Assembly: GCA_040752415.1 (NCBI GenBank)
Contig: JBFMGU010000224.1
Span: 1-17,222, forward strand
Direction of reading: 5' to 3'
DNA from: Myxococcota bacterium
Lineage (GTDB): Bacteria > Myxococcota > JACRCW01
Length of the DNA: 17,222 nucleotides
In this document: positions 542-17,222 of the stretch, one piece after another
How the letters are laid out: each line of letters starts with the position of its first letter
How positions within the stretch are numbered: position 1 is the first letter of the stretch
The notes under the pieces: generated by a model
Database searches by the model: none
What the model saw: only the letters and a program-made list of their open reading frames with translations
What the model was told of the DNA's origin: nothing
Position numbers and translations under genes: made by a program

Positions 542-3500
542 TCAGCCTTCCACGCAGCCGCCGCCAGGCACGCAGACCGAGCCGCACCCGTCGGGGTCAC
601 CGCAAATGCGACAGAGACACTGCGGCGTGCACGGACCGCCACCACCGCAAATCTGGCCCGGTCCACACGCCTGACCATTGCAGCACGGACGGTTCGGGTC
701 ACAGGGCTCGCCGTCGGGCGCGCACTGACCGCCGCCGCCACAGTAGCCCTCGGGTGGGCACGCCTGGCCGTTGCAGCAGGGATGCGTCGGGTCGCATTGG
801 GCGCCGTCGGGAGCGCAGGCTCCACCGTCGGGGAAGCACTGCATGACAGCCGGGTCGCAGCGGTAGCCGGGGCAGCACTCGGCGTCGGCGGCACACGCGC
901 GTGCATCACACTGGTTCTGCGCACAGATGCCGTTGGCGCAGCTGCCACTGCAGCAGGGACGGTTCGGGTCGCACTGCGCTCCGTCGGAGATGCACTCGTT
1001 CTCGCAGATGCCCTGCGGACCGCAGTACCCGTTGCAGCACGGGATGCCGGCCTGGCACTGCGTGCCAATCGGTGTGCACTGGCTCTCGCAGATGCCGTTG
1101 GCGGAACAGGGCTGGTTGTTGCAGCACGGACGGTTGGGATCACACTGCGCTCCGTCGGGCGTGCAGGCGCCGCCGTCGGGGTAGCACTGCTGGGCCGCCT
1201 GATCACAACGGTACCCTGCACAGCACTCCGCGTCCGTGGCGCAGGGACGGTCGCACTGATTCGGCATGCAGGTGCCGTCGGTGCAGTTTCCGCTGCAGCA
1301 CTCGGTTGCCGCGTTGCACGCCTCACCCTCGACGCGACACTGCCCACCGCCGCCACAAGTCCCGTTGGCAGAGCACGACTGGCCGTTGCAGCAGGGACGG
1401 TTGGGATCACACTGCGCACCGTCGGGCGTGCAGCCTCCGCCGTCGGGGAAGCACTGCATGGCGGCCGGGTCGCAGCGATAACCCGCGCAGCAATCCGCGT
1501 CGGTGGCACAGGTCTGCGCGTCGCACTGGTTGGGTGAGCACACGCCGTTGGCGCAGTTCCCGCTGCAGCACTCCGCATTGACGGCGCACGCCATGCCCTC
1601 TGGGCCACACCCGCCGCCGCAAATGCCCTGTGCATCACACGTCAGACCGGCACAGCAGGTTCCATTGATGCACGGCTGACCCGCTTGCGCACAGGCTCCA
1701 CCGTCGGGGAAGCACTGCATGGCGGCCGGGTCGCAGCGATAACCCGCGCAGCAATCCACGTCGGTGGCACAGGTCTGCGCGTCGCACTGGTTGGGTGAGC
1801 ACACGCCGTTGGCGCAGTTCCCGCTGCAGCATTCTGCGTTGACGGCGCACGCCATGCCCTCTGGGCCACACCCGCCGCCGCAAATGCCCTGTGCATCACA
1901 CGTCAGGCCAGCACAGCAGGTTCCATTGATGCACGGCTGACCCGCTTGCGCACAGGCTCCACCGTCGGGGAAGCACTGCATGACAGCGGGGTCGCAGCGA
2001 TAACCGGCGCAACACTCGGCGTCGGTCACGCAGTTCCGACCATCACACTGGTTCTGCGCACAGGTGCCGTTGACGCAGCTGCCACTGCAGCAGGGAAGGT
2101 TCGGGTCGCACTGCGCTCCGTCGGGGATGCACTCGTTCTCACAGACGCCCTGCGGACCGCAGTACCCGTTGCAGCACGGGATGCCGGCCTGGCACTGCGT
2201 GCCAATCGGTGTGCACTGGCTCTCGCAGATGCCGTTGGCGGAACAGGGCTGGTTGTTGCAGCACGGACGGTTCGGATCACACTGCGCTCCGTCGGGCGTG
2301 CAGGCGCCGCCGTCGGGGTAGCACTGCTGGGCCGCCTGATCACAACGGTAGCCCGCGCAGCATTCCGCATCCGTGGCGCAGGGACGGTCGCACTGATTCG
2401 GCATGCAGACCCCGTCGGTGCAGTTTCCGCTGCAGCACTCGGTTGCCGCGTTGCACGCCTCACCCTCGACGCGACACTGCCCACCGCCGCCACAAGTCCC
2501 GTTGGCGGAGCACGGTTGGCCGTTGCAGCAGGGACGGTTGGGGTCACACTGCGCTCCGTCGGGCGTACAGCCTCCGCCGTCGGGGAAGCACTGCATCGCC
2601 GCTGGGTCACAGCGGTAGCCGGCGCAGCACTCGGCATCGGTCACGCAGTTCCGACCATCACATTGGTTCTGCGCACAGGTGCCGTTGGCGCAGCTGCCAC
2701 TGCAGCAGGGACGGTTCGGGTCGCACTGCACGCCGTCGGGGAGGCACTCATTCTCGCAGATACCCTGCGGACCGCAGTAACCGTTGCAGCACGGGATGCC
2801 GGCCTGGCACTGGGTGCCGATCGGGGTGCACTGGCCCTGGCAGATACCGTTGGAGCAGGGCAGCCCGTTGCAGCACGGACGGTTCGGATCACACGACGCG
2901 CCGTCAGGCCGGCAGGTTCCACCGTCGCCGCAGATGCCATTGACGCACGCTCCGCCACAGCACTCGTCGTTCACCGCGCACGGCTCGCCCGTCGGACGGC
3001 AGCCATTGGGCTCGCAGAATCCGTTGGCCGGACACGGCTGCCCGTTGCAGCATGGACGGTTCGGATCGCACTGCGCCCCGTCGGGGGTGCAGGCGCCGCC
3101 GTCCATGCACACGCCGTTGATGCACGCCAGGCCCGGTGCGCACGGAGCCTGCGCGGAGCACGGCTGACCCGGCCCTCCGCACATCACCACCACGCACTGC
3201 CGCGCCGCACCACACATCTCCCCGGCACGACACGTCCCACAATCCAGCACCTGCCCGCAGCCGTCGTCGACGACGCCGCAGGTGGCGCCCATCTGCTGAC
3301 AGGTGCGCGGCTGACACTGCGGCTGCTGACAGATGCCCTGCGTGCACTCCATGCCGGAGCAGCAGTCCGTTGCCGACGCACAGGTCTGCCCGGCGCTCCC
3401 ACACGCGTTGCACGAGGATCCCTGCAGCGGCACACACACCGTGCTCATCCGCGTGGCGCTGCACTCCAGGCGCCCGTCGATCTGGCACCCATCCCGCACC

Positions 3501-6424
3501 GTCACGCAGGGCTGTCCCACGCCCCATCCCTCGTCGACACTCGTGTTGCAGTTGTTGTCGCGCGCGTCGCACAGCTCGCTGTTGCCGGGGCGCACGGAGG
3601 GGTCGGTGTCATCGCAGTCACCGCCAGCGGAGGGCAGGCCGTCGCCGTCGTTGTCGCACTCCGCCGCGGAGGTGTCGGCGCCGGAGCAGTCCTGGTCCAC
3701 GCCGTCGCCGCACAGGTCGCGGGTGTTGGGGTGGATGGAGGGGTTGGTGTCGTCGCAGTCACCGCCCGCGCCCGGACCGGCGAAGTAGCCGTCGCGGTCG
3801 TTGTCGACGGGGTTGTCCGGGAGATCCACCACCATCAGGTGGACCTCCACGCCCGGTCCACGCTGATTGCTCGCGTCGGTGGCAAACACCACGAAGCGGT
3901 ACACGCCCTCCCCGCCCGGCGTCACCTGGAACGCGCGGCCGGGGAAATTCGCCGGCGGAGCAACCTCGACGAGGTCATGCTGCGGCGTGCCCGGAACCGG
4001 CTGCCACGTGAACGAGATCGCGCCCCCTTCGGGGTCCGTGGCGTAGGCCAGGTAGAGCTGGTGGGTGGCGCCGGTGCTGGGGTCCAGCACGCTGGACAGC
4101 GGGGAGACCAGCGGCTGTCCCGGCGGCAGGTCCGCGTTCTGCGCCACGACGAGAATCCGCGCCTCACCCGGCGAAGAATAGTCCGCACCGTCGTAGGCGA
4201 AGCAGGTCACCACGTACTCGCCGGGGGTGGACGCGGTGAACCAGGCGCGGCGTCCGTCGTGCTGGAGGGACGCGGGCTGCGTCACCGTCCAGGAGTAGGT
4301 GAGTCGAGCGGGATCGCCGTCGGGGTCGTGGGCAATGGCGTCCAGGAAGACCATCTCGCCCGCGCGCAACTCCACGGCGCTGGCGGCAACCTCGCAACGC
4401 GGCGGGATGTTGTCGGGCGGGGGCAGGAACGCCACCACCTCGAACGCGTACGTGATGGTGGCCGGCGCGTCCCCCACGGTGGCCAGGACGCGGTAGAGGC
4501 CCGGCTCCTGGGCGGTGACGTCGACGGAATCACCGGCCGGGACCAGCGTGACCGCGCCGTCGGCGCTCCACTGCACGGGCAGCGGGCCGTTCTCCACCAC
4601 CACCGACAACGACGCGGAGACCCCCACCGGCACCGCCACCACGTCGCCGGGAACGCCGAACACCACGGGGCGCGGCACGTCGAACTGCGGGTCAAACGAC
4701 GTGGCCAGTCCGTCGCAGTCGTCGTCGAGACCGTCGCGGTTGACCAGGTCCGTCACCACTACACGCTGGCCACCCAGCGGGGAGCCCGCCACCGAGGAGA
4801 CGCGGTCCGCCTCCTCCGCCGCCACCACCTGCACCACCACCTCCGCGGTGACCTCCAGCTCGGCGCCCGGCGCGGCGTCCACCCGACGAGCCACCACCAC
4901 CGCGCGCTCATTGCGCAGGTAGGAAGCCACCACGTCCAGCGCGCTGCCTTCCACGCTTTCCACGGCCAGCACGCGACCGCTCTCGTCGGCAACGGACAGG
5001 CGCAGGCGTCCACCGGCCTCCGGCACGGCGGAGGAAACCAACGCGTGCATCTCACGGATGCCGTCGGGCCCCGTCAGCGTCACCCGCGTCAACACCTGCA
5101 GCGCCCTTCCCTCGGTGAGGCTCGCCAGCACGTCGGCGGCATTGCTGGCGCCCGGCGGCGCACCCGCCACGCCGGAAGCGGGAATCTGCTGCAGCAAGGG
5201 AACGAGCAACGGCTGCACCAGCACATCCGAGGCGCAGGTGCTGTTGGCGCTGCCGTGGTCGACGTCAATGCTGACCAGCGTGGGGTCGGAGGAGGCCAGG
5301 TACGTGCTGAAGTGCTGCACCTCCGCCACGGCAATCCCCGCCGCGGTGTCGACGGAAACCAGCGGCACGGTCTCCCACCGCCCCGAGGCCTGGTCGAACG
5401 TCTGGACCTGGATGTTGCCCTGCGCCAGCACCGCAGCGGAGACGGGGATCTGGATGTGCACCGGCTGCGCGAACACCAGGCCGGAAGGGCCGAACTCCAC
5501 CGGGATCAGGTCGGTGGCCTGCAGGCCCGCCAGCAACGCTTCCGCGGGCGGCACCAGGTTCGCCACGGCGGAGATGGTGAGGTCCACGTCGCTCTCCAGC
5601 GCTCCTGGCGGAATCACCAGCGAGGTGCCGGCAATCTCGGAGAGCGGCGCGTCCACGCGAACCACGGCGCCGTCGGGGTCGGACGCGCTGACGGTCTGCT
5701 GCGTTTCCACCGTCACGCCCGCCACGCTCACCACGAAGGACTGGTCAATGACCTCGCCATCCAGCACCGCCTGCACGGTGAAGGAATGGGAACCCATCTG
5801 GTTGGCGCTGGGCGTCCAGGTGATGCGGCCGCTGGAATCCACCGCTGCACCCGTCGGAGCAATGGGCAGCGTCCAGGTGGCCACTCCCGAGCGCGAGAGC
5901 GTGGCCTGGTAGCTCCACGGCTGGTCCTGGAGGCCCTGCGGCACGGGGAGGGAGCGGAAGTACAAGCGCGCCGCCGGCTCACCCGAGCTGCTGCTTCCCG
6001 ACGAGGAAGTGGAAGAAGACGACGAGGTGGATGCCGCCCCGCTGGTGCTCCCGGACGTGGCCCCGCCCCCCGACGACGAGGACGCTCCGCTGCCGCTGCC
6101 CGCGCCCCCCGACGACGACGCGCCGCTACCCCCGCCCGAGGACGTAGCCCCATTGCCGCCCGACGAGCTCGACGCGTTGCCGCCCGAGGACGTGGAGCCG
6201 TTCGCCGCGGATGAGCTGGACACCACGCCGCTGCTCGACGACGATGACTGGCCCGAACCACTGCCGCCCGACGAGGAAGAACCCGTCTCCGCGGAGCTGG
6301 AGCCCCCGCCGGTCGACGAGCTGGTTGACGAGGAAGCGGGGTCGCCGCTGCTGGATGACCCGGTACCGCCGGAGCACGCAGCAAGGGACAACAACGTCAT
6401 GACGACGAGCGAGGAACGACGCAT
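542..6424 (-). CDS. Giant cysteine-rich surface lipoprotein (1960 aa): Ser/Gly linker, putative Ig (He_PIG/cadherin-like), ZU5-like, PKD/Ig-like domains, two MopE-type putative metal-binding motifs, long Cys-rich repeat array
   Basis: ATG with GAGGGGAG RBS 6 nt upstream; signal peptide MRRSSLVVMTLLSLAA-C (lipobox LAAC); Ser/Gly tract ~aa18-148; PTGAAVDSSGRITWTP (He_PIG-like); LVIPPGAL..FGPSGLVFAQPV..HFSTY (ZU5-like); DPDGD..LTYSW and DPEGGAISFTW (PKD-like); DCDDTNPSIHP..CGDGVDQDC and DCDDTDPSVRP..CDARDNNC (MopE-type); C-C-CC-C-C modules. Confidence 0.92.
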   Translation of the reverse strand: MRRSSLVVMTLLSLAACSGGTGSSSSGDPASSSTSSSTGGGSSSAETGSSSSGGSGSGQSSSSSSGVVSSSSAANGSTSSGGNASSSSGGNGATSSGGGSGASSSGGAGSGSGASSSSGGGATSGSTSGAASTSSSSSTSSSGSSSSGEPAARLYFRSLPVPQGLQDQPWSYQATLSRSGVATWTLPIAPTGAAVDSSGRITWTPSANQMGSHSFTVQAVLDGEVIDQSFVVSVAGVTVETQQTVSASDPDGAVVRVDAPLSEIAGTSLVIPPGALESDVDLTISAVANLVPPAEALLAGLQATDLIPVEFGPSGLVFAQPVHIQIPVSAAVLAQGNIQVQTFDQASGRWETVPLVSVDTAAGIAVAEVQHFSTYLASSDPTLVSIDVDHGSANSTCASDVLVQPLLVPLLQQIPASGVAGAPPGASNAADVLASLTEGRALQVLTRVTLTGPDGIREMHALVSSAVPEAGGRLRLSVADESGRVLAVESVEGSALDVVASYLRNERAVVVARRVDAAPGAELEVTAEVVVQVVAAEEADRVSSVAGSPLGGQRVVVTDLVNRDGLDDDCDGLATSFDPQFDVPRPVVFGVPGDVVAVPVGVSASLSVVVENGPLPVQWSADGAVTLVPAGDSVDVTAQEPGLYRVLATVGDAPATITYAFEVVAFLPPPDNIPPRCEVAASAVELRAGEMVFLDAIAHDPDGDPARLTYSWTVTQPASLQHDGRRAWFTASTPGEYVVTCFAYDGADYSSPGEARILVVAQNADLPPGQPLVSPLSSVLDPSTGATHQLYLAYATDPEGGAISFTWQPVPGTPQHDLVEVAPPANFPGRAFQVTPGGEGVYRFVVFATDASNQRGPGVEVHLMVVDLPDNPVDNDRDGYFAGPGAGGDCDDTNPSIHPNTRDLCGDGVDQDCSGADTSAAECDNDGDGLPSAGGDCDDTDPSVRPGNSELCDARDNNCNTSVDEGWGVGQPCVTVRDGCQIDGRLECSATRMSTVCVPLQGSSCNACGSAGQTCASATDCCSGMECTQGICQQPQCQPRTCQQMGATCGVVDDGCGQVLDCGTCRAGEMCGAARQCVVVMCGGPGQPCSAQAPCAPGLACINGVCMDGGACTPDGAQCDPNRPCCNGQPCPANGFCEPNGCRPTGEPCAVNDECCGGACVNGICGDGGTCRPDGASCDPNRPCCNGLPCSNGICQGQCTPIGTQCQAGIPCCNGYCGPQGICENECLPDGVQCDPNRPCCSGSCANGTCAQNQCDGRNCVTDAECCAGYRCDPAAMQCFPDGGGCTPDGAQCDPNRPCCNGQPCSANGTCGGGGQCRVEGEACNAATECCSGNCTDGVCMPNQCDRPCATDAECCAGYRCDQAAQQCYPDGGACTPDGAQCDPNRPCCNNQPCSANGICESQCTPIGTQCQAGIPCCNGYCGPQGVCENECIPDGAQCDPNLPCCSGSCVNGTCAQNQCDGRNCVTDAECCAGYRCDPAVMQCFPDGGACAQAGQPCINGTCCAGLTCDAQGICGGGCGPEGMACAVNAECCSGNCANGVCSPNQCDAQTCATDVDCCAGYRCDPAAMQCFPDGGACAQAGQPCINGTCCAGLTCDAQGICGGGCGPEGMACAVNAECCSGNCANGVCSPNQCDAQTCATDADCCAGYRCDPAAMQCFPDGGGCTPDGAQCDPNRPCCNGQSCSANGTCGGGGQCRVEGEACNAATECCSGNCTDGTCMPNQCDRPCATDAECCAGYRCDQAAQQCYPDGGACTPDGAQCDPNRPCCNNQPCSANGICESQCTPIGTQCQAGIPCCNGYCGPQGICENECISDGAQCDPNRPCCSGSCANGICAQNQCDARACAADAECCPGYRCDPAVMQCFPDGGACAPDGAQCDPTHPCCNGQACPPEGYCGGGGQCAPDGEPCDPNRPCCNGQACGPGQICGGGGPCTPQCLCRICGDPDGCGSVCVPGGGCVEG
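647..3091 (-). repeat. Intragenic array of 28 consecutive six-cysteine (C-C-CC-C-C) modules with block duplications
   Basis: Counted from the translation, e.g. CTPDGAQCDPNRPCCNGQPCSANGTC and CRVEGEACNAATECCSGNCTDGVC. DNA blocks 836-1450 and 1973-2587 (615 bp) are near-identical and flank two tandem 261-bp units (1451-1711, 1712-1972). Confidence 0.92.
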
Positions 6425-6661: not shown

Positions 6662-8593
6662 ATGCGCACCTTCCCTCGCCTCGCCTTGCTGTGCGGCCTG
6701 GTCCTTGTCCCCGCGTTTGGCGTGGCCGCCACCCAGGCCATCAAGGCCGCCTTTGTCCCCGACGCCAACCTCGAGCGCGCCAAGGTTCCCGAGCAGTACA
6801 AGTGGAAGCTGGACCCGCTCTTCAAGGACGACGCCGCGTTTGAAGCTGCGCTGTCCGCCATCCCCGGCGAACGCGCGAAGATGCGCGAGCTCAAGGGCAA
6901 GCTCTCCCAACCCGCCGAGCTCAGGAAGTGCCTGGACCTCTACTTCCAGACCCGCCTGGCGCTGAACAAGTTGACCCTCTACGCACACCTCCGCGTGGAC
7001 ACCGACCAGAAGAACGCCGCGCTGCAGGCCATGGACGAGAAGGCGCAGAAGGCCATGGCGGATTTCTCCGCGGACGCTTCGTTCATCCGCCAGGAGGTCC
7101 TCAAGCTGGACGAAGCGGCCATGAAGGACGCGCTAAACAAGGAGCCCGGCCTGGCGCAATACAAGCCGTACATTGACGAGATGCGACGTCGCCGCGCGCG
7201 GGTGTTGGATGAGCAGGCGGAGCGGGTGCTCTCCCTGGCCGGCGACAACCAATGGGCGGAGATCGACCTCAACGAGATTCCCTCCGACCACGAGAAGACC
7301 TTCAAGGCCGCGCTCGCGGACGTCCCGCTGCCCAGGATTGTCGACGAGCAGGGCAAGGAGGTGCAGCTCACGCTGGCCAACTACCCGCGCTTCCGCGGCT
7401 CCAGCGACCGCCGGGTGCGCCAGGACGCCGTGGCCAAGCTGATGGGCACCCTGCGTCAGTACCAGCACATCTTCGCCAGCACGCTCTCCGGTCAGGTGAA
7501 CTTCAACATCTTCCTGGCCCGCTCCCGCGGCTATCCCACGGCGCTGGCCGCGTACCTCGACAAGGACAACATCGACACCGCCGTCTACACGAACCTCATC
7601 CAGGCGGTGAACGCCAACCTTGCGCCGCTGCACCGCTACGTGGCGCTGCGCAAGCAACTCATGAAGCTCCCGGATCTGCACCTCTACGACCTCTACGTCC
7701 CCATGACCGCCGAGACGAAGATGGATTTCACCTACGAGGACGGCGCGCGCATCATCCCGGAAGCTCTGGCCCCGCTGGGTCCCGACTACGTGAAGGTGCT
7801 GAAGGAGGCCCTGGCGCCGGGCTCCGGTTGGGTGGACGTGTTTCCCAACAAGGACAAGGCCAGCGGTGCGTTCTGCGCCAGCGTGTTCGGCATGCACCCG
7901 TTCATGAAGCTCAACCACCTCAATGATTTTGACGGTCTCTCAACGCTGGCGCACGAGCTGGGCCACGCGCTGCACAGCCACCTGTCCATGAAGCACCAGC
8001 CGTACGTGACGTCGAGCTACGTGCCGTTCATCGCGGAGATTGCGTCCACCATCAATGAGAAGCTGCTCAGCGACCACCTCGTGAAGAAGGCCAGGACGCC
8101 GCAGGAGAAGGTTGCCGTGCTGACCAAGCTGGTGGAGTCCATCCGCACCACCATCTACCGGCAGACGCTCTTCGCGGAGTTCGAGCTGGCGGTGCACACC
8201 GCGGCGGAGAACGGCACGCCGTTGACGAGCGAATTCCTGGACAAGACCTACGGCGACCTGGTGCGCAAGTACTACGGTGCGGGCTTCACCGTCGACGAGA
8301 ATGACGGCATGGAGTGGGCGTACATCCCGCACTTCTATTACAAGTACTACGTCTTCGCGTACGCCAACGGCCTCTCCGCCGGCATCGCGCTCGCGGAGAA
8401 GATCCAGACGGGGAAACCCGCCGCGCGCGACGCATACCTGGGCATGCTAAAGGGCGGCTCCTCCAAGCCCCCGCTGGACCTCCTCAAGGGCGCCGGCGTG
8501 GATCTCACCCGTCCCGACGCCGTGGAGGCGGCCGCGCGCCTCATGGACAAGACGTTGGCGGAGCTGGAGAAGCTGCTGGCCGCCAAGAAGTGA
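6662..8593 (+). CDS. pepF: Oligoendopeptidase F (M3B zinc metallopeptidase) with predicted N-terminal signal peptide
   Basis: AAGGAG RBS 5 nt upstream; RAKVPEQYKWKLDPLF N-terminal motif, LHLYDLYVP, KASGAF, zinc motif HELGH (7952-7966), AEIASTINE, RQTLFAEFE, WAYIPHFY..YYVFAYA, LKGGSSKPP..LKGAGVD. Confidence 0.95.
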   Translation: MRTFPRLALLCGLVLVPAFGVAATQAIKAAFVPDANLERAKVPEQYKWKLDPLFKDDAAFEAALSAIPGERAKMRELKGKLSQPAELRKCLDLYFQTRLALNKLTLYAHLRVDTDQKNAALQAMDEKAQKAMADFSADASFIRQEVLKLDEAAMKDALNKEPGLAQYKPYIDEMRRRRARVLDEQAERVLSLAGDNQWAEIDLNEIPSDHEKTFKAALADVPLPRIVDEQGKEVQLTLANYPRFRGSSDRRVRQDAVAKLMGTLRQYQHIFASTLSGQVNFNIFLARSRGYPTALAAYLDKDNIDTAVYTNLIQAVNANLAPLHRYVALRKQLMKLPDLHLYDLYVPMTAETKMDFTYEDGARIIPEALAPLGPDYVKVLKEALAPGSGWVDVFPNKDKASGAFCASVFGMHPFMKLNHLNDFDGLSTLAHELGHALHSHLSMKHQPYVTSSYVPFIAEIASTINEKLLSDHLVKKARTPQEKVAVLTKLVESIRTTIYRQTLFAEFELAVHTAAENGTPLTSEFLDKTYGDLVRKYYGAGFTVDENDGMEWAYIPHFYYKYYVFAYANGLSAGIALAEKIQTGKPAARDAYLGMLKGGSSKPPLDLLKGAGVDLTRPDAVEAAARLMDKTLAELEKLLAAKK

Positions 8594-8745: not shown

Positions 8746-11511
8746 ATGCTCAACGTTCGCACTCTGCACACCTTGGCAGTGACGGCACTCGCACTCTCGT
8801 TGTGGGCATGCCCGACGCAACAGACGGATGACCCCGAGGTGGAAGGCGGCGCCTCGGAAGGCTCCCCGTGCGTGGCGGACACCGACTGCGACGGCATGCT
8901 GTGCATTGGCGGGACGTGCCAGCGACAGGGAGCGAGCACGTCGTCGGGAGGCTCGTCGGGGAACGCGTCCGGGTCGGGCGGGTCCAACACCTCCAGCACC
9001 AGCGGAGGCGGCGGGGACGCTGGCCCCACCGACGCGTACGTGCCCGCGGGATTCATCGAGCTGGACCCCGCCGAGGGACCGCTGGAATTCGGCGCCACAC
9101 GCGTGGGCGCTTCCGTCACGCTGAACGTCCTCGTCACCAACACCGGCAATGCCCCCGCCAGCCTCATCAGCCTGGCCTTCCGCAACAACCCCAGCGGCGA
9201 GTTCACGCTCAGCGTGGTGGGCGGGCAGCCCGCGGTGCTCAACCCCAATGAGCAGATCACCGTCCGCATCACCCACGCCGCCACCGACGCCGCCGCCGAC
9301 CACGCGTTCCTCAGTGTGGTGACCAATGCATCCAATCCGCTCGTCGAGCTGGAGCTGGTGGCGGAGTTCAAGGGTGACCCGGCCCTCTCCATCACGCAGA
9401 CTCCCGACGACACCACCGAGGTGACGACGTGGGCGCTGGATCCCACGCCGGTGGGCACCCCGGTGACGGGTCACCTCTACGTCAAGAACGTGGGCCAGGC
9501 GGACAGCGCGCTCACCATCTCCAGCGTCACGCTGGACCCTCCGGCCTCCGCGCTGTTCAGCGTCGCGGCGGGCCCGTTGCCGCGTGCCATCAGCTCGTGG
9601 TCGGGGTTGTGCGTGGACCTGGGCGGCTGCGACCCCACCGCCACCGAGTGCACCAACGGGCTGTGCCTGGGCAGCGGCTCGGGGGGAACGCTGTATCCGC
9701 GGGACGTCGTCGACGTGGCGCTGACCTTCAACGCGGGCGCCGGTGGCGAGGCCACCACGGAGGTGGTCATCGTCGCCGACGTTGCGGGCACGCCCACCAC
9801 GCGTCGCATCCCGGTGGCGGCGTTGGCGCAGGATTCCCGCCTCAACGTCAGCCCCAATCCCATTGCGTTTGGCAACGTCTTCGTCGGGCGCGACAAGACC
9901 CTGCAGGTCACGTTGGAAAACCCCGCCGACGCCACCAGCGTCCTCAACATCACCGACATTGGCATCCGCTTCACACCGAGCCCGTACGAGGTGCAGCTGG
10001 GTGGCGTGAGCTTCCCGTACCCGCTGACGCCGGGGAGCAGCGTGGTGGTGGCCGTGAAGTTCTCGCCGCAGAACCCGGGCAACTTCGGAAACAGCCTGGC
10101 CATCTCGCGTGAGGGCGGCCTGCCCATCTACGTGCCCATCACCGGCGTGGGCGCCAATGAGCCGGATGCCGACGTGCCCGCCAGCCTGGACTTCGGCGGC
10201 GTGGTGCCCGGCACCTCCAAGACGCTGCCGCTCACCATCGGCAACGTGGGGCTGGGGCCGCTCATCACGTCGCAGGCGGAGGTGACGCCCTCCGGGACGC
10301 CGTTCACGTTCACCCCCGCCACCATCCCCGACGTGGATGCCAACTCCAGCACCCTTGTGCAGGTGACCTACGCGCCTCCGCTCGAGGGCGTCACCGACGT
10401 GGCCACGCTGCTTCTGCAGACCAACGACCCCAATCAGCCGGTCATCCAGGTGCAGCTCTCCGGGCAGGGCGTCATCCCCGCCGCCGAGGTGACGCCGTCG
10501 GGGTTGGACTTTGGCAGCGTGCTGGTGGGCACGGCCAATCCCCCCACGCAGAACATCACCGTGCGCAACACCGGCATGGGGTACCTCAACGTCAACAGCC
10601 CGCTGCGCGTGGTGAACGCGGGTGGCGCGAACATCCCGGAATACACGGTGACGGCGTCACGCACGCTGCCTGCCGACGTGGCCAGCGGGGACGCCATGAC
10701 GCTCACGGTGCGCTTCGCGCCCAGCGCCGCCACGTCCTACAGCGGCAACCTCACCATCACCACCAACGACCCGAACCGCCCGGAGATCACCGTGCCCGTC
10801 ACCGGCAGCGGGAACAACTGCACGCCGCTGCCCAACACCAGTGTCACCGTCGTGAATGGCACGCAGTGCGCGTATCAGTGCGTCCCGGACGCGGTGCAGT
10901 GCGCGGACCAGAGCTGCGTGATTTGCCCGCAGCGCCACGGTGCCACGCCCTCGTGCACGTCGGGGAATGCGTGCCAGTACACCTGCCCCGCCAACAGCGG
11001 TGAGCCGATTGATCCGCCCGGCACGTGCAACAGCGGCACGGCGTACAACCTGGGCAACATCCAGGACGGCAGCACGCAGACCACCAGCAACTTCCGCGTC
11101 TACCCCGGCGGCGACAACGACTGGTTCAAGTTCGTGGCCGCGGACCGTCTGGGTGGCTTCTACGAGGGTGTCCCGTTCCGCGCCTTGCAGGTCTTTGTGC
11201 GGCTCTCCGGCGTGCCGCAGGGCGAGCAGCTGGCGGTCGAGCTGGTGCAGAACACCTGCGGCGGCGGTGGCACGCCGGTGGTGGTGGGCGCGGGACAGAC
11301 GGGAGAGGTGGAGAGTCCCCAATGGTGTGACACGTACAGCGTCAATGACAACGGCACACCGGACAACCCCGACGACGACTACACCGAGCCCATCGACGAC
11401 AGCCGCACGTTCTACGTGCACGTGTACCCGATTGGGGACAGCTACGCGTGCAACAGCTACACGCTGACGGTGGAAGTGGAAGAGCCGTTCTTCAGCGCGT
11501 TCTGCTTCTGA
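8746..11511 (+). CDS. Lipoprotein with five ASH/choice-of-anchor-D (Hydin-like Ig) domains, Cys-rich modules and a C-terminal PPC-like domain (921 aa)
   Basis: Signal MLNVRTLHTLAVTALALSLWA-C; repeated LxFGxVxVG...V/IxNxG motif (LEFGATRVG..VTNTG, IAFGNVFVG, LDFGGVVPG..IGNVG, LDFGSVLVG..VRNTG), two of them ending in TNDPNxP; C-terminal GDNDWFKF...FYVHVY...YTLTV resembles the bacterial pre-peptidase C-terminal domain. Confidence 0.88.
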   Translation: MLNVRTLHTLAVTALALSLWACPTQQTDDPEVEGGASEGSPCVADTDCDGMLCIGGTCQRQGASTSSGGSSGNASGSGGSNTSSTSGGGGDAGPTDAYVPAGFIELDPAEGPLEFGATRVGASVTLNVLVTNTGNAPASLISLAFRNNPSGEFTLSVVGGQPAVLNPNEQITVRITHAATDAAADHAFLSVVTNASNPLVELELVAEFKGDPALSITQTPDDTTEVTTWALDPTPVGTPVTGHLYVKNVGQADSALTISSVTLDPPASALFSVAAGPLPRAISSWSGLCVDLGGCDPTATECTNGLCLGSGSGGTLYPRDVVDVALTFNAGAGGEATTEVVIVADVAGTPTTRRIPVAALAQDSRLNVSPNPIAFGNVFVGRDKTLQVTLENPADATSVLNITDIGIRFTPSPYEVQLGGVSFPYPLTPGSSVVVAVKFSPQNPGNFGNSLAISREGGLPIYVPITGVGANEPDADVPASLDFGGVVPGTSKTLPLTIGNVGLGPLITSQAEVTPSGTPFTFTPATIPDVDANSSTLVQVTYAPPLEGVTDVATLLLQTNDPNQPVIQVQLSGQGVIPAAEVTPSGLDFGSVLVGTANPPTQNITVRNTGMGYLNVNSPLRVVNAGGANIPEYTVTASRTLPADVASGDAMTLTVRFAPSAATSYSGNLTITTNDPNRPEITVPVTGSGNNCTPLPNTSVTVVNGTQCAYQCVPDAVQCADQSCVICPQRHGATPSCTSGNACQYTCPANSGEPIDPPGTCNSGTAYNLGNIQDGSTQTTSNFRVYPGGDNDWFKFVAADRLGGFYEGVPFRALQVFVRLSGVPQGEQLAVELVQNTCGGGGTPVVVGAGQTGEVESPQWCDTYSVNDNGTPDNPDDDYTEPIDDSRTFYVHVYPIGDSYACNSYTLTVEVEEPFFSAFCF

Positions 11512-11869: not shown

Positions 11870-12841
11870 TCAGTACTCGTACAGGTCCTTCGCCACCTTC
11901 ACCACGTCGTCAACCTGGGGGAGGAAGAACTTCTCCAGGCTGGGCGCGTAGGGCACCGGCGTGTCCGGCGCGGTGATGCGACGCAGCGGCGCATCCAGGT
12001 GCTCAAAGCATTCCTCGTTGATGATGGCCATGATCTCGCCCGCGGGACCGCCGGTGCGCGTGGCCTCGTGCAGGATGAGCACCTTGTTGGTCTTCTTCAC
12101 CGTCGCCACGATGGCCTCGCGGTCCATGGGCAGCAGCGTGCGCAGGTCCACCACCTCCACGTTGATACCGTCGGCGGCCAGCTTCTCCGCCGCGTCCAAC
12201 GCCACGTACACCATGGCGCCGTAGGTGATGACGCTGAGGTCGGTGCCCTCTCGCGCCACGCGCGCCTTGCCAATGGGCGTCAGCTCCTCCGTCACCTCGC
12301 CCTTGATGCGACGGTAGAGGAACTTGTGCTCCAGGTAGATGACCGGGTCGTCGTCCTGGATGGAGGCGCGGATGAGACCGTACGCGTCCTGCGCGGTGGC
12401 GGGCGCCACGATCTTCAGCCCCGGGATGTTCATGTAACAGGCCTCCGGGTTCTGCGAATGGTACGGCCCACCGCTCACGCCGCCACCACACGGCCCGCGA
12501 ATGACGATGGGAATGCCCACGCCCCAACGGTACCGGCTCTTGGCCGCGTAGTTGACGATGATGTCGTGCGCGCAGCCCATGAAGTCGATGAACTGCATCT
12601 CCGCCACCGGCCGCATGCCCGTGATCGCGGCGCCAATGGCCGCGCCCACAATCGCGCTCTCGCTGATGGGCGTGTCGACGATGCGGTCCGGACCGAACTC
12701 ATCCAGGAACCCCTTGGTCACGCGGAACGCGCCACCGTAGGTGCCAATGTCCTCACCCAGCATGAACACGCGCGGGTCCCGCACCATCTCCTCGTGCAGT
12801 CCCTTGGTGAGCGCCTCGATATAGGTCATCTGCGCCATCAT
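11870..12841 (-). CDS. 2-oxoacid (branched-chain/pyruvate) dehydrogenase E1 beta subunit
   Basis: GEDIG..GGAFRVTKG, DTPISESAIVG, VAEMQFIDF, GGPYHSQ, EHKFLY, EVVDLRTLLP, LDAP..DTPVPY motifs. TGATGATG junction with the upstream gene; GGAG spacing favours the second ATG (12838) as the start. Confidence 0.95.
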   Translation of the reverse strand: MMAQMTYIEALTKGLHEEMVRDPRVFMLGEDIGTYGGAFRVTKGFLDEFGPDRIVDTPISESAIVGAAIGAAITGMRPVAEMQFIDFMGCAHDIIVNYAAKSRYRWGVGIPIVIRGPCGGGVSGGPYHSQNPEACYMNIPGLKIVAPATAQDAYGLIRASIQDDDPVIYLEHKFLYRRIKGEVTEELTPIGKARVAREGTDLSVITYGAMVYVALDAAEKLAADGINVEVVDLRTLLPMDREAIVATVKKTNKVLILHEATRTGGPAGEIMAIINEECFEHLDAPLRRITAPDTPVPYAPSLEKFFLPQVDDVVKVAKDLYEY

Positions 12842-13938
12842 CAGCTCCGAATCCGGTAGTGCACCCCGGTCCTGGCATCACCCGTCAATTCCATCGCCGC
12901 GTACACGTCGGTCAGTCCGTCGACACCGGTGGCCGGCGCGCGCTTGACCGCTTCCTGCACGGCGTCACGCCACTCCGTCTCCACGCGCTCCTCCACCGCC
13001 TTCAAGCCGTTCTCGTCGAGGATGCCCAGCTCCGCCAGCCGGTGCTCCAGTCGGCACAGCACGTCCTCGTCGGACCGGCGACACCGACGCACGCGCTCCG
13101 CGTAGTCGTCGACCTCGTCGGTGGTGTGGCCGCCGGCGCGGATGGTCTTGCATTCCACCAGCGTTCCCCCGCCACCCGAGCGCGCGCGCTCAAAGGCCCG
13201 CTGGCACGCCAGGTACACCGCTTCCACGTCGCAGCCGTCCACGCTCTCGAACGGGACCCCATACGCCTCCGCGCGCGTGGCCAGGTCTGGGAGGAGGCAG
13301 TCCAGCTCCGTGGCGGTGCCGCCGGCAAAGCCGTTGTTGTTGCACAGCATGACGTAGGGCAGTCCCTGCGCCGCCACCAGGTTGATGGCCTCGTGCCAGG
13401 TGCCGGTGTTCATGACGCCGTCACCAAAGAACCCCAGCGCCACCTGCTTCTGCTTGCGCACGCGGAAGGACAGCGCAATGCCCGCGCCCACCGCGAAGTT
13501 GTCGGCGGTGGGACCGAGCGGCGGCGTGGTGTGGAGCGCCAGGCTGCCCAGGTGCGTATGCCCCGTGCGTCCGCGGCTGGGTGACTGCGCCGCACCCTGG
13601 AACTGCGCCACCACGTCGACGAGCGGCAGGCCCCGCATCAGGTGCGCGCCCAGCTCACGCTGCGTGGGACAGATCCAGTCATCCTTGGCGGTGTGGATCA
13701 CCGAACCCACCACCGCCCCTTCCTGTCCCAGCGCGGCGTGCAGCGGCCCCACCAGCTTCCCCTGCGCAATCCCTTCCGCCAGGTGCTGCTCGACGAGGCG
13801 CGTGCGCACCAGCGCGGCGTGCATGGCCCGCAGCTGCTCCACCGGCACCTGGCTGGGCGTCACGTCGGGAGCACGACCATTCCTGGCCTTGCGCGCACGC
13901 CCCGCGGACTCCGTGATGCTTTCCTTGCTCTTGGCCAT
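12841..13938 (-). CDS. TPP-dependent 2-oxoacid dehydrogenase E1 alpha subunit (second, more diverged copy)
   Basis: LGQEG, PTQRELG, TPP-binding GDG...HEAINL...NNNGFA, VDGCDVEAV, LVECKTIRAGGH; stop codon abuts the beta gene. Confidence 0.9.
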   Translation of the reverse strand: MAKSKESITESAGRARKARNGRAPDVTPSQVPVEQLRAMHAALVRTRLVEQHLAEGIAQGKLVGPLHAALGQEGAVVGSVIHTAKDDWICPTQRELGAHLMRGLPLVDVVAQFQGAAQSPSRGRTGHTHLGSLALHTTPPLGPTADNFAVGAGIALSFRVRKQKQVALGFFGDGVMNTGTWHEAINLVAAQGLPYVMLCNNNGFAGGTATELDCLLPDLATRAEAYGVPFESVDGCDVEAVYLACQRAFERARSGGGGTLVECKTIRAGGHTTDEVDDYAERVRRCRRSDEDVLCRLEHRLAELGILDENGLKAVEERVETEWRDAVQEAVKRAPATGVDGLTDVYAAMELTGDARTGVHYRIRS

Positions 13939-13947
13939 GGGCTCGCC

Positions 13948-14967
13948 TCACATCGGGGGGACGGCGGGACGCTTCTCGCCGGCGTAGACACCGCCCATGG
14001 CGCTCTCGCCACGCGGCTGGGGAACGGTGAGCGCGCGGTCCACGCACTCGGTGAGCAGGTCCTCGATCTTCGCGCGCATCGCCTCGCGCTCGGCGCGGCT
14101 GGGGGCGCCGGGGGTGGCGTCGCAGGTCTGCTCGAAGCGCAGCAAGGGGTCCCGCTGCTTCCACTCCTCGAAGAGCGCGGGCGGGACGTAGCCGGCGTCA
14201 TCATGTTCGGCGTGACCGCGCATGCGGAAGGTCACGGCTTCCAGCACCACCGGGCCCTTCCCCTCCCGGCACAACGCCGCCGCACGACGGGTGGCGCGCA
14301 CCGCCTCCAGCACGTCGTTCCCGTCGAAGCGGATGCCGGTGACGCCGTACGCCTTGGCCTTGAGCACGAACTCCTTGATGGGCGTCTCGCGCTGGTTGGG
14401 CGTGCTGTACGCGTAGCCGTTGTTCTCGATGACGCAGATGAACGGCAGGCGCTTCACGGCCGCCAGGTTCATGGCCTCGTGGAAGTAGCCGTTGGTCTGG
14501 CCGCCGTCGCCAATGTACGTGAGCGCCACCGCGTCCTGGCCGCGCATCTTGATGCTCATGGCCACGCCGGACATCACCGTCATCAGCGCGCCGAGCATGG
14601 AGGTGCAGCACACCAGGCCCTTGCTGAGGTCACCAAAGTGCGTGTTGACGTCGCGGCCCATGGTGGGTCCGGTGGCCTTGGCACAGTACTGCGCCATGAT
14701 GGCCTCCGGGCTGATGCCGCGGACCATGAACACGCCCAGGTTGCGGATCATGGGTCCCACGTAGTCGCTGGGACGGAGCGCATAGGCCGTGCCCACGCTG
14801 CACGCCTCCTGCCCCAGCGAGCGGTACAACCCGCCGACGATCTGGCCCTGCCGGTACAGGCGCGTGAGCCGCTCCTCGAGGAGACGGTTGAGGTTCATGA
14901 AGTAGTAGAGGTCCGCCAGCTCCTCCGGCGTGAACTCCACGGTGGTCTCAGGGGCGGGTTTCACCAC
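13948..14967 (-). CDS. TPP-dependent 2-oxoacid dehydrogenase E1 alpha subunit (canonical copy)
   Basis: GTG start with AAGGAG RBS 7 nt upstream; LYRQG, LGQEA, GDGG...HEAMNLA...ENNGYAYSTP, DGNDVL, FRMRGHAEHDD..Y...W..RDPL. Confidence 0.95.
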   Translation of the reverse strand: MVKPAPETTVEFTPEELADLYYFMNLNRLLEERLTRLYRQGQIVGGLYRSLGQEACSVGTAYALRPSDYVGPMIRNLGVFMVRGISPEAIMAQYCAKATGPTMGRDVNTHFGDLSKGLVCCTSMLGALMTVMSGVAMSIKMRGQDAVALTYIGDGGQTNGYFHEAMNLAAVKRLPFICVIENNGYAYSTPNQRETPIKEFVLKAKAYGVTGIRFDGNDVLEAVRATRRAAALCREGKGPVVLEAVTFRMRGHAEHDDAGYVPPALFEEWKQRDPLLRFEQTCDATPGAPSRAEREAMRAKIEDLLTECVDRALTVPQPRGESAMGGVYAGEKRPAVPPM

Positions 14968-15019
14968 GGGGCAGCTCCTTCCCGAGGGGCGAGGGTCCTA
15001 GGGCACCCCGGGTCCCGCC

Positions 15020-15034
15020 GCAAGGGCCTGGCCA
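15020..15034 (-). promoter_or_regulatory. Candidate sigma-54 -24/-12 promoter for the E1 operon
   Basis: The minus strand reads TGGCCAGGCCCTTGC (TGGC-N7-TTGC), ~50 nt upstream of the GTG start. Confidence 0.35.
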
Positions 15035-15114
15035 CGGGCATGCCCGCGCAGATGCTGCGGAATGACACCATGGGCGCCAATGGCCGCGCCGGAGCGGATC
15101 GTTAGGATTCCGAC

Positions 15115-15120
15115 GAGGAG
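15115..15120 (+). promoter_or_regulatory. Ribosome-binding site for the Pup-like ORF
   Basis: GAGGAG 8 nt upstream of the ATG at 15129. Confidence 0.7.
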
Positions 15121-15128
15121 ATAGGGCC

Positions 15129-15287
15129 ATGAACGTCCATCACGCTCCCAATGCGCCGCAGTCCCGCACCAGCACGTCCCAGGAAGAGCAGGACCTGGCC
15201 GCGCTCCTCAAGGAGATGGCGGACGACGCCCGTCACGCCGCGGCGGAGTACCTGGAGGACAGTCTGGTCCGTGAAGGCGGAGAATAA
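15129..15287 (+). CDS. pup: Pup/UBact-like prokaryotic ubiquitin-like protein (52 aa, C-terminal GGE); absent from the supplied ORF track
   Basis: Hand translation: MNVHHAPNAPQSRTSTSQEEQDLAALLKEMADDARHAAAEYLEDSLVREGGE*. Strong RBS, polar disorder-prone N-terminus, acidic helix-prone C-terminal half, terminal GGE, and 8 nt upstream of a PafA-family gene. Confidence 0.85.
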   Translation: MNVHHAPNAPQSRTSTSQEEQDLAALLKEMADDARHAAAEYLEDSLVREGGE

Positions 15288-15295
15288 GCCGTCCC

Positions 15296-16993
15296 ATGTT
15301 GCAGCGACTGCTGGGCCAGGAAACCGAATACGCCATCCGCTTCACCCCGCGGGATCGGTCACGTCGGCCCAGCAATGAGGTCGTGTACAACGCGCTGTCG
15401 GCTGCCGTGTCGTCGTTGGTGTCCACGCGGCCGGGTGAACGGCAGGCCGTGCGCAAGCAGTTCTTCACCGAGAACGGCGGCGCCTTCTGTTACGAGTTCT
15501 TCCCCTACGCCACCGACGCGGGCCTCATGGAAGGCGCCACGCCGGAATGTCGCGGGCCCGGCCAGCTCCTCCTCTACCAACGCGCGCAGGAAGCGCTCCT
15601 GCTGCAGGCCATCCCCATTGCCGAGCAGACGCTGGCCATGCAGGGCTACGGCGGCTCGCTCGGGCTCATCAAGAACTGTCGCGACGCCCAGGGCCACGTC
15701 TACGGCGCGCAGGAGAACTACGAGGTGGAGATTGCCCGCGGCGTGGGGCTGTGGCTCTACCGCGCGGGGCTGGTGCTGCTCATGCCGTTGCTGGCGCTCA
15801 CCGTGATGCAGATGTGGATGGGCGTGGCGCTGTTCTTGGTGGCGGCGGTGGCGGTGCTGTTGTCCTCGGTGGTGCTGAGCACGGTCATTCCGCCGCTGCG
15901 TCGGGTGCCGCTCATCCGCCAGCTCCGCGATGGCGACGACGATCTGGCCTCCGATCCCACCCTGGGGCGCCTGAGCTGCCTGGTGGAGCGGGTGCTGGGC
16001 TGGCCGGTGATGGCCCCGTTTGCGCTCTTGTTGCGCGCGTTGGCGTTCCGCCGGGTCCGTCGGGACGTGCTGGCGTTCCTGGTGAGCCGGCCCATCATCT
16101 CCGGAACCGGCACGGTGATGCCCGACGGGAGCTTCTGGCTCAGTGAGAAGGGCGTGGCCACGCTCCGCGTGATGCGCAGCAGCGTGAGCCCGGCGGACCG
16201 TCCCATCCTGGACACCGGGAACCTGTTCAAGGACCTGGCGGCGCCGGTGCTGGCGCGGGTGCCACCGCTGTTCAGCCTGTTTTCCCGTCGTCAGCGGCTG
16301 CAGCTGGGGCTCAGCGACTCCAACCGCGCGCAGGTGGCGGAATACCTCAAGGTGGGGACCACGTCGCTGGTGCTGGACATGATGCAGGCGGGCGCGCTGG
16401 CCGACGCACCGCGCTTCCGCGACCCGGTGGCCGCGCTCAAGACCTTCATCTCCGACGCCACGCTGCGCGCCACCGTGCGCACCACGGGCAACCGCGAGGT
16501 CACCGCCCTGCAGGTGCAGCGCTACTACCTGGAGCGGGCCCGCGCCTTCGTGCGCAGCTCCACCACCACGTCGCTGGAAGCGCACGAGATTGTCCGGCAC
16601 TGGGGTCAGGCGCTGGATGCGCTGGAGCAGGATCCCGGCACGCTCGTCGGGAAGATTGACTGGGTGACCAAGCGGCACCTGCTGCAGACGCTGGGGCGGG
16701 ACTCCCCGCATGAGTCGCTCAAGAAGATGGACCTGCGCTACCACGAGCTGGGCGTGGGCTACCTGGACCGGCTGGAGCGCGCGGGCCAGGCGCCGCGTCT
16801 CGTCGACGAGGAGCAGGTGCAGGAAGCCGTGCGCACCCCGCCTTCCGGGACGCCAGCGCGCCTGCGCAGTCGACTCATCCGCATGCTGCCCAACCCGGAT
16901 TCCATGGTGACCGTGTCGTGGAGCAGCGTGCGGGTGGGCGGTCCGGTGGGGGGCCAGGTCATCCGGCTGGACGATCACCGGCCGTGCCCGTGA
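15296..16993 (+). CDS. pafA: Pup ligase/deamidase (PafA/Dop) family protein with an internal hydrophobic, probably transmembrane, insertion (565 aa)
   Basis: Collinear PafA motifs: RLLGQETEY (GhExE), FTENGG, EGATPEC, LIKNCRD..G..YGAQENY, FLVSR..ISGTG, RPILDT, RLQ....DSN......LKVGTTSLVL, ALQVQR.Y, IDWVTKR.L, DLRYHE, PP..T.ARLR, VSW. Uncharged stretch at aa157-200. Confidence 0.88.
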   Translation: MLQRLLGQETEYAIRFTPRDRSRRPSNEVVYNALSAAVSSLVSTRPGERQAVRKQFFTENGGAFCYEFFPYATDAGLMEGATPECRGPGQLLLYQRAQEALLLQAIPIAEQTLAMQGYGGSLGLIKNCRDAQGHVYGAQENYEVEIARGVGLWLYRAGLVLLMPLLALTVMQMWMGVALFLVAAVAVLLSSVVLSTVIPPLRRVPLIRQLRDGDDDLASDPTLGRLSCLVERVLGWPVMAPFALLLRALAFRRVRRDVLAFLVSRPIISGTGTVMPDGSFWLSEKGVATLRVMRSSVSPADRPILDTGNLFKDLAAPVLARVPPLFSLFSRRQRLQLGLSDSNRAQVAEYLKVGTTSLVLDMMQAGALADAPRFRDPVAALKTFISDATLRATVRTTGNREVTALQVQRYYLERARAFVRSSTTTSLEAHEIVRHWGQALDALEQDPGTLVGKIDWVTKRHLLQTLGRDSPHESLKKMDLRYHELGVGYLDRLERAGQAPRLVDEEQVQEAVRTPPSGTPARLRSRLIRMLPNPDSMVTVSWSSVRVGGPVGGQVIRLDDHRPCP

Positions 16994-17096
16994 ATGGGTT
17001 GGCGGGAAATCCCGAGACAAGGAAGTCAGAAGTCAAGCGATGTCGGGGAATCCCCACAGGGAGTCACGAAGCGGGTGAGCGGAAGCAGCGGCGCCC

Positions 17097-17150
17097 TGGA
17101 GTGCGGTGCGAAGCGGATCAAGCGGTCGACGACGTGAAGCACCGCCCTGG
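17097..17150. repeat. Variant REP-like element with expanded loop
   Basis: TGGAGTGCGGTGC...GCACCGCCCTGG shares the GGAGTGCGGT head and ACCGC..TGG tail with the other copies; stem 17103-17109/17139-17145 with a 29-nt loop; downstream of pafA. Confidence 0.55.
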
Positions 17151-17222
17151 ATCGGGCCGTCCAGACGGCGCGGACGTCGTTCAGTCCCCCGGGTGCCTCG
17201 TGCTCTCGACGCTCCCCATGGC

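Follow-up and report, generated by a model that had tools for sequence, protein, structure and literature searches.

Near one end of a 17,222-nucleotide stretch of a Myxococcota bacterium genome (contig JBFMGU010000224.1 of assembly GCA_040752415.1; the whole stretch is called the window here), a gene of the PafA/Dop family follows directly behind a small open reading frame (ORF) whose product ends in Gly-Gly-Glu. The reading we favor, and hold to be fairly probable, is that these two genes form a Pup-like tagging module, in which the 52-residue small protein serves as the tag and the family enzyme, called the ligase below, is anchored at the inner membrane by a helical stalk inserted into its catalytic fold. 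The small ORF lies 8 nucleotides upstream of the ligase gene on the same strand, and the elements of the proposed module are as follows.

15115-15121, forward strand: Shine-Dalgarno-like sequence GAGGAGA, 7 nucleotides before the ATG of the small ORF (from the sequence).
15129-15287, forward strand: acidic, Pup-like ORF of 52 residues ending in EYLEDSLVREGGE, stop codon included (from the sequence; called protein P0285).
15296-16993, forward strand: gene of the PafA/Dop (Pup_ligase) family, 565 residues (PF03136, AlphaFold2 model and VIA superposition).

The Pfam model Pup_ligase, PF03136, matches the ligase with 280.5 bits (E = 3.5e-83, cut-off 25), and the match runs over residues 4-545 and profile positions 1-440 of 441, that is, the full domain. 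An AlphaFold2 model built on a 110-sequence alignment has a mean predicted local distance difference test score (pLDDT) of 95.5 and a predicted template modeling score (pTM) of 0.94, and a model of the identical sequence in the ESM Atlas has a pTM of 0.85. Superposition of such a model on PafA and Dop structures, proposed in the first-pass annotation of this DNA, finds the core preserved. The best structural match by VIA is Dop 5lrt, with Z = 46.3 and a root-mean-square deviation (rmsd) of 2.7 Å over 424 residues, while PafA 4bjr_B gives Z = 40.1 with an rmsd of 2.9 Å over 422 residues; Foldseek is in agreement. As modeled, the PafA/Dop core fold is intact despite a large insert. Alignment of a 19-member family profile to solved PDB structures shows most of the ATP/Mg2+ and catalytic residues in place: the GxExE ATP-binding motif is kept, as L5, G7, E9 and E11, while E79, E84, E140 (of ENY), R265, R334, D341 and N343 fall on active-site positions of PafA/Dop. 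E140, which stands in the sequence QENY, does not vary among the 19 aligned sequences and is kept in at least 90% of the 110. In the family alignments R265 (of FLVSR), G270, G272, R334 and D341 are invariant or nearly so, and N343 is nearly invariant. The GxExE residues, E79 and E84 likewise show little or no variation, being conserved at 90% or more.

Between ENY (residues 140-142) and FLVSR (residues 261-265) the ligase has 118 residues, against a canonical spacing from ENY to F[LF][IV]TR of 17 in both PafA 4b0t (chain residues 134-150) and Dop 4b0r (159-175). The first-pass annotation had called this same difference of 118 against 17, marking a hydrophobic insertion at 15722-16063, which is residues 143-256 of the ligase, and comparison of the ligase sequence with the two structures bears the call out. 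Because the profile-to-PDB alignment stops directly after ENY and picks up again at profile position 244-247, the insert is placed at about residues 144-243. It can be divided, together with a shorter insertion farther along, into the following parts.

15725-16024, forward strand: main insert, residues 144-243, about 100 residues without counterpart in solved PafA/Dop structures (profile-to-PDB alignment).
15740-15886, forward strand: outgoing long helix, residues 149-197, with conserved Pro164 and aromatic residue 174 (DSSP on the AlphaFold2 model).
15887-15955, forward strand: tip or turn, residues 198-220, with PP, RR and DGDDD, three short helices, variable and charged (AlphaFold2 model and column statistics).
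15956-16042, forward strand: return helix, residues 221-249, taking in the second hydrophobic segment described below, antiparallel on the outgoing helix (AlphaFold2 model and covariation).
16049-16063, forward strand: basic cluster RRVRR, residues 252-256, at the stalk base, within the canonical helix that leads into FLVSR (sequence and column statistics).
16208-16288, forward strand: second insert, residues 305-331 (DTGNLFKDLAAPVLARVPPLFSLFSR), in the position of the TRDEPHAD loop and 13 residues longer (alignment to Dop 9cku).

Residues 157-201 of the ligase make up a run of 45 without Asp, Glu, Lys or Arg, flanked by R156 on one side and by R202 and R203 on the other. An uncharged run with Arg at both ends had been described earlier as 44 residues, 157-200; the run and its flanks are as described, and its length is corrected to 45. 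The second hydrophobic segment, VLGWPVMAPFALLLRALAF, does occupy residues 233-251 with RRVRR (252-256) after it, as had been reported, but it does not belong wholly to the insert; because residues 244-260 are the usual helix before FLVSR, the segment is partly canonical. Basic residues are grouped at the base of the insert (R148, R156, R247, R252, R253, R255 and R256), and Lys or Arg occupies columns 252, 255 and 256 in 74%, 92% and 78% of 110 sequences. The suggestion that a further segment replaces the RDEPHAD loop agrees with the profile-to-PDB alignment, in which the region is 13 residues longer; its NLFKDL begins at residue 309, nucleotide 16220.

The insert recurs throughout the homologs compared. 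With the ligase as query, a word-indexed protein search scored 8000 candidates and gave 1206 proteins at E<=0.001, and the best 120 of these 1206 are 538-720 residues long, with 49-56% identity over 93-100% of the query; an exhaustive search of 50%-identity representatives returned 3239 matches at E<=0.001 and 363 at E<=1e-30. Both motifs could be recognized by pattern in 232 of 264 stored homologs, the other 32 being fragments or motif variants, and in all 232 the spacing from ENY to FLVSR lies between 84 and 238 residues (median 117), and in none is it the canonical 17. A 19-residue window with a Kyte-Doolittle mean of at least 1.8 occurs in 230 of the 232, and the longest uncharged run reaches at least 35 residues in 193 and falls below 35 in 39. 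Charged residues are almost absent from columns 157-201 of the 110-sequence alignment, whereas Lys or Arg fills 86% of column 156 and 72% of column 202; the columns of Pro164 and Pro237 are 85% and 89% Pro or Gly. In the smaller alignment, position 174 is aromatic (W, F or Y) in 19 of 19 sequences, and the residues within the charge-free run are otherwise not conserved as sequence. Hydrophobicity that is maintained without conservation of sequence, between basic flanks, would be the usual signature of lipid-exposed helices. Five relatives (P0203, P0204, P0188, P0215 and P0229) have shorter inserts, with 84-92 residues between the motifs; among these shorter-insert relatives the hydrophobic run is much weaker or single and the return helix amphipathic, and judging from such features they may be monotopic or soluble variants.

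The same architecture is found far outside the Myxococcota. Genome loci were collected from 279 pattern matches, of which 230 were confirmed and 80 were kept for comparison, and they come from Myxococcota (including Plesiocystis pacifica, Chondromyces apiculatus and Paraliomyxa), Acidobacteriota, Planctomycetota, Leptospirales, Oligoflexales and others. Plesiocystis is represented by locus L038, whose ligase matches ours at 48% identity over residues 1-562, with its motifs likewise 118 residues apart. Searched with this query, 30 sampled relatives of the source genome (1 of the same family, 2 of the same class and 27 of the same phylum) yielded no ligase, and the nearest homologs are no more than 56% identical. 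Because none of the 30 carries the gene, its distribution appears patchy, and this absence together with the low identity suggests patchy retention or lateral acquisition.

The predicted structure and covariation agree on the course of the main insert. DSSP applied to the AlphaFold2 model gives a continuous 49-residue helix at residues 149-197 (pLDDT 93-98), short helices at 199-203, 205-212 and 215-219, the return helix at 221-249, and the canonical helix at 252-264, with further helices at 308-319 and 323-329 in the second insert. The tip has the lowest pLDDT of the protein, C-terminal tail excepted, with block means of 77-85. Mean-field covariation was computed on 317-321 sequences (effective number about 250-264) in two runs, over residues 120-300 and over residues 1-350. 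The method is validated by the known beta-sheet contacts, such as 128-138, 128-284 and 138-285, that rank at its top. The pair 158-245 is second-highest in the run over residues 120-300 (score 3.46) and the strongest within-insert pair in the run over residues 1-350 (2.57), and the other strong insert pairs, 144-254, 151-253, 162-245, 162-237, 154-233 and 172-223, share with it a sum i+j near 400. Because of these pairs, the outgoing and return helices are taken to run antiparallel, with the insert departing from the core and rejoining it at a single place. Covariation links the second insert to the base of the stalk (329-160 at 1.38, 325-233 at 1.13 and 328-251 at 1.08, where the 99.9th percentile is 1.04), and for this reason the two insertions probably form one helical module. 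Five further pairs, 167-179, 175-185, 166-183, 167-183 and 173-181, with i+j of 346-360, are not explained by the continuous helix of the model; they could reflect a turn near aromatic residue 174, in a hairpin state, or an antiparallel homodimer.

Membrane association would be the natural reading of such an insert. Because the ends of the insert adjoin and the core superposes on Dop and PafA, both catalytic halves must lie on the same side, as the first-pass annotation had it. That side would be the cytoplasm, because basic residues lie at the base of the stalk and because an ATP-dependent enzyme needs the cytoplasm in any case. The helical hairpin anchor proposed in that annotation survives in part. 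A conserved hydrophobic helical insert with adjoining ends (144-254, 151-253 and 158-245) and a basic base is indeed present, but in the AlphaFold2 model its two arms are the 149-197 helix and the return helix, and not two transmembrane (TM) helices inside the charge-free run.

The small gene is nearly as constant as the insert in the loci compared. Gene pairing was examined in 81 sources, the 80 loci plus the window, in 78 of which the N-terminal motif of the ligase was recognized by pattern. A same-strand reading frame ending in G[EQ], with its stop codon no more than 300 nucleotides from that motif, is present in 76 of the 81; of these 76 frames 74 end in GGE, one in EGE and one in DGE, and none ends in Gln. 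At L011, L039 and L068 such a frame is farther off or the motif pattern was missed, and at L008 and L061 no small frame ending in G[EQ] was found near the ligase. The C-terminal consensus of the small proteins is D-[AS]-x6-Y-L-x-E-[TS]-x-V-P-x-G-G-E. A profile of them, searched against a large protein collection, retrieved 37 small proteins that are either nameless or labeled "hypothetical", and canonical Pup was not among them; PPSIR1_01919 of Plesiocystis, named "hypothetical protein", is a relative. For working purposes, Iyer, Burroughs and Aravind (2008, PMC2588565) count as Pup a protein 50-90 residues long that ends in G[EQ] and whose gene adjoins that of a PafA homolog, and the protein described here, with 52 residues, a terminal GGE and a gene 8 nucleotides from that of the ligase, agrees with that description.

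The genome, 96.8% complete, has one PF03136 gene, and no second PafA/Dop homolog was found in it. Its sole match to PF00227, the model used to look for a 20S proteasome, is HslV, and its best match to the Mpa model pup_AAA (TIGR03689) reaches 163.7 bits against a cut-off of 504.75. Because these searches of the genome turned up neither a 20S proteasome nor Mpa nor a second PafA/Dop paralog, the role of the tag is probably regulatory or otherwise non-proteasomal. In the mechanism we propose, a stalk of about 100 residues and two helical strands, the outgoing one almost without charge, would emerge directly after the active-site strand that ends in ENY, the 13-residue insertion would pack upon it, and the stalk would most likely hold the enzyme to the inner membrane from the cytoplasmic side, neither catalytic half leaving the cytoplasm. 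On the pattern of PafA, the enzyme would use ATP to phosphorylate the terminal Glu of the tag at its gamma-carboxylate, and no deamidase step would be needed, because all tags end in Glu. The tag would then be transferred to lysine amines of membrane or membrane-proximal proteins, acceptors that are proposed because the enzyme would be tethered to the membrane. Within this scheme we infer the membrane localization, ligase in preference to hydrolase chemistry, the small protein as substrate and lysines as acceptors.

A number of observations weigh against this reading and have to be set beside the alternatives. Those that concern the membrane begin with the stalk itself, which in the AlphaFold2 model is about 70 Å long and exceeds the thickness of a bilayer, and with 12 charges in residues 199-232 of the return strand. 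Simple 2-TM and 4-TM topologies both fit the model poorly, and the inserts of P0203 and P0204 are short and weakly hydrophobic. The modeled stalk may be embedded obliquely or monotopically, or lie partly in the membrane. A four-TM model of the ligase is disfavored by the 12 charges just mentioned, and a three-TM model was set aside, as it would leave the two parts of the catalytic domain on opposite sides of the membrane. One alternative retains two TM helices but moves them into the 45-residue run at 157-201, which would itself be a hairpin with a tight periplasmic turn near W174-G176, leaving residues 202-251 cytoplasmic or peripheral. We regard this arrangement as possible, though doubtful. 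The Lys and Arg columns at both ends of the run suit the positive-inside rule, an aromatic residue stands in the middle of the run in every sequence of the small alignment, and the five pairs with i+j of 346-360, two of them above the 99.9th percentile, suit a turn near residue 175; the free energy of insertion, by a rough estimate, is -2 for residues 176-194 and about +2 for residues 152-175, and the negative value speaks for the favored membrane stalk as well. The AlphaFold2 model, however, makes residues 149-197 one continuous helix with high confidence, and the block pairing residues 146-175 with 176-201 is not enriched, with 5 pairs exceeding the 99th percentile where chance would give 7.7. 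With residues 223-254 antiparallel to 144-172, moreover, the charged residues 199-222 would have to cross the membrane. In P0111, P0188 and P0229 the runs are only about 28-31 residues, and these proteins cannot for that reason form a hairpin within the run; the 39 homologs with runs below 35 residues argue in the same direction. The stalk could also serve oligomerization, or be buried as a helical bundle in a soluble enzyme, with no membrane anchor at all, and its excess length over the bilayer, the covariation of the second insert with its base, as expected in a helical bundle, the weakly hydrophobic inserts of some relatives and the pairs with i+j near 350, which could be antiparallel contacts between subunits, would all accommodate that. 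Against it stand 45 charge-free residues, hydrophobic without being conserved as sequence and set between basic flanks in 110 sequences, which is a signature of lipid exposure, and the hydrophobic window present in all but two of the 232 homologs; we consider a soluble enzyme the least likely of the explanations weighed here.

Other observations against the favored reading concern the chemistry and the tag. The ligase scores far below the equivalog cut-offs of both NCBIfam models, with 198.6 against 551.3 bits for PafA (TIGR03686) and 171.3 against 492.3 bits for Dop (TIGR03688), and by VIA its modeled structure is slightly nearer to the hydrolase Dop than to the ligase PafA. Glu67, invariant in 19 sequences, at least 90% conserved in 110 and followed by a 6-residue insertion, occupies the position of the catalytic Asp of PafA (in LYLDVG), Gln139 stands where PafA has the His of HENY, and in place of the RDEPHAD loop there is DTGNLxK with 13 extra residues. 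We take the TRDEPHAD loop, which precedes the RRLHV strand, to be a defining feature of the PafA/Dop family. Because of these three replacements, the chemistry of the ligase or its acceptor could differ from those of PafA. The catalytic Asp in question is Asp64 of Corynebacterium glutamicum PafA and Asp94/95 of Dop (Table 1 of Hecht et al. 2020, PMC7947786). On the side of the tag, none of 24 small proteins matches the Pfam or NCBIfam Pup models at E<=10, a PF05639 search of the genome has no match at E<=1, and the profile of the small proteins, run against the PDB, picks up no Pup chain at E<=10. Finally, when ORFs of 70 residues or more from the loci and the window were clustered all against all, no third gene conserved across phyla emerged. 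It is conceivable that the enzyme is mainly a Dop-like hydrolase, a depupylase, or a bifunctional ligase and hydrolase. Searches of PDB sequences place it nearer to Dop than to PafA (120.8 against 102.3 bits and 201 against 178 bits), as does the structural comparison (Z of 46 against 40), and, as the sole PafA/Dop homolog in its genome, it would have to perform any removal of the tag itself. Hecht et al. 2020 (PMC7947786) place single-copy planctomycete homologs outside the PafA/Dop split and report that about 20 substitutions switch the activity. Nonetheless, Glu is the last residue in each of the 76 small ORFs and Gln in none, which makes a deamidase unnecessary; a tag gene accompanied by a hydrolase alone would have nothing to attach the tag; and the NCBIfam score for PafA exceeds that for Dop. 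We judge this alternative unlikely. Still less likely, in our estimation, is that the acceptor is a membrane amine, such as phosphatidylethanolamine (PE) or the headgroup of an ornithine lipid or other aminolipid, so that the GGE protein would become lipid-anchored in the manner of Atg8-PE. The stalk leaves the fold directly after the ENY strand and could bring the active site near the bilayer surface, the loops on the substrate side are unlike those of PafA (RDEPHAD replaced, Asp changed to Glu), and no conserved protein partner is encoded nearby. This idea is reached by inference throughout, however; canonical PafA uses protein lysines, and membrane proteins were the targets proposed in 2008 (PMC2588565). 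In a less radical variant of it, one bifunctional enzyme that predates the PafA/Dop split would carry out reversible tagging of inner-membrane proteins independently of any proteasome.

The arrangement of a TM insert in a Pup ligase, and its reading as an anchor, have been in print since 2008. In that computational study, Iyer et al. (PMC2588565) describe a TM insertion after core strand 4 in the Pup ligases of Plesiocystis and Rhodopirellula, find these TM-inserted ligases without linkage to the proteasome, and suggest that they probably act at the cytoplasmic face, modifying membrane-associated proteins. The insertion point, immediately C-terminal to core strand 4, the ENY strand, is the same in the ligase described here, and the systems of Plesiocystis pacifica and Rhodopirellula baltica likewise have an adjacent small gene whose product ends in G-E and, as here, no proteasome linkage. 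By the features of that clade the ligase can be counted among the TM-inserted enzymes: its hydrophobic insert follows core strand 4, it is an ortholog of the Plesiocystis protein, and no proteasome is linked to it. A difference is that the 2008 paper counts four TM segments, whereas the stalk modeled here is two-stranded and carries the charges at 199-232 noted above. Hecht et al. 2020 (PMC7947786) use single-copy planctomycete homologs as the outgroup of PafA and Dop, and the available portion of that paper makes no mention of a membrane insert in them. No experimental study of the TM-inserted clade was found in the literature searched, most subscription-journal papers being beyond reach. To these accounts the present analysis adds a geometry for the stalk, a pairing between the two insertions, two conserved substitutions (Glu67 and Gln139), tags that uniformly end in Glu, the breadth of the family and the lack of a conserved third gene.

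PafA of C. glutamicum (4B0T, 4BJR) has GxExE, ENY, F-L-[VI]-[ST]-R, the Arg of the RL strand and D-x-N in common with the ligase, and is likewise paired with a small protein ending in Gly-Gly-Glu; it lacks both the hydrophobic insert of about 100 residues and the 13-residue insert. Dop (4B0R, 5LRT, 9CKU) is the best PDB sequence match, but it is without a membrane insert, and the tag in our system already ends in Glu and would need no deamidation. The GCS2/YbdK ligases (1R8G, 1TT4) share the carboxylate-amine ligase core, with Z about 21 over ~300 residues, but differ in their 12% identity, their small-molecule substrates and their lack of both the C-terminal PafA/Dop domain and the insert.

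Genes near the ligase vary from locus to locus. The widest cluster of ORFs spans 19 loci and is heterogeneous in length and position, and other clusters represent lineage-specific synteny in Acidobacteriota. The linked membrane-protein gene of the 2008 paper was considered as a general partner and set aside, as the genes downstream of the ligase differ between loci and include DUF456, MFS, DoxX, DUF2254, S13 peptidase (in Plesiocystis) and DUF5658 proteins. A DUF456 membrane protein follows the ligase at three planctomycete loci (L057, 6094-6636; L065, 3423-3986; L067, 2616-3158), and a DUF5658 membrane protein is encoded directly upstream of the ligase at 7592-7975 of L008, one of the two loci that lack the small gene, and only there; neither arrangement is general. 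The window itself ends 229 nucleotides past the ligase gene. A scan of 14900-17222 for promoter and terminator consensus sequences found nothing. A minus-strand ORF of 553 residues at 15359-17020 overlaps the ligase gene and was rejected as an artifact of high G+C, because the Pfam match sits in the plus-strand frame.

Elsewhere in the window, two tandem E1_dh (alpha-type) genes at 12841-13938 and 13948-14967 and a transketolase-like E1 beta gene at 11870-12841, all on the minus strand, make 11870-14967, on sequence grounds, a predicted 2-oxoacid dehydrogenase E1 cluster with a duplicated alpha subunit, divergent from the Pup-like pair. On the plus strand, an M3-family oligopeptidase is encoded at 6662-8593 and a 921-residue protein of ASH/HYDIN/Cep192-type Ig-like repeats at 8746-11511; in the ORF clustering, neither gene recurs beside the ligase in the other loci. 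A 1960-residue ORF on the minus strand at 542-6424 has no Pfam family at E<=1e-5, and a 1422-residue ORF at 1946-6214 on the plus strand lies antisense to it.

To our knowledge, pupylation has been studied almost only as an actinobacterial route to the proteasome. The module described here is widespread in Gram-negative phyla without a proteasome, with at least 230 genome loci and 363 50%-identity clusters at E<=1e-30. The value of the window itself lies mainly in annotation, as the 52-residue gene and its relatives are without a database name or family. Should the lipid-headgroup reading prove true, the module would be a bacterial counterpart of Atg8-PE lipidation, carried out by a ligase of the glutamine-synthetase fold. 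Identification of the targets would reveal a second, non-degradative use of Pup chemistry, and would also clarify the ancestry of PafA and Dop.

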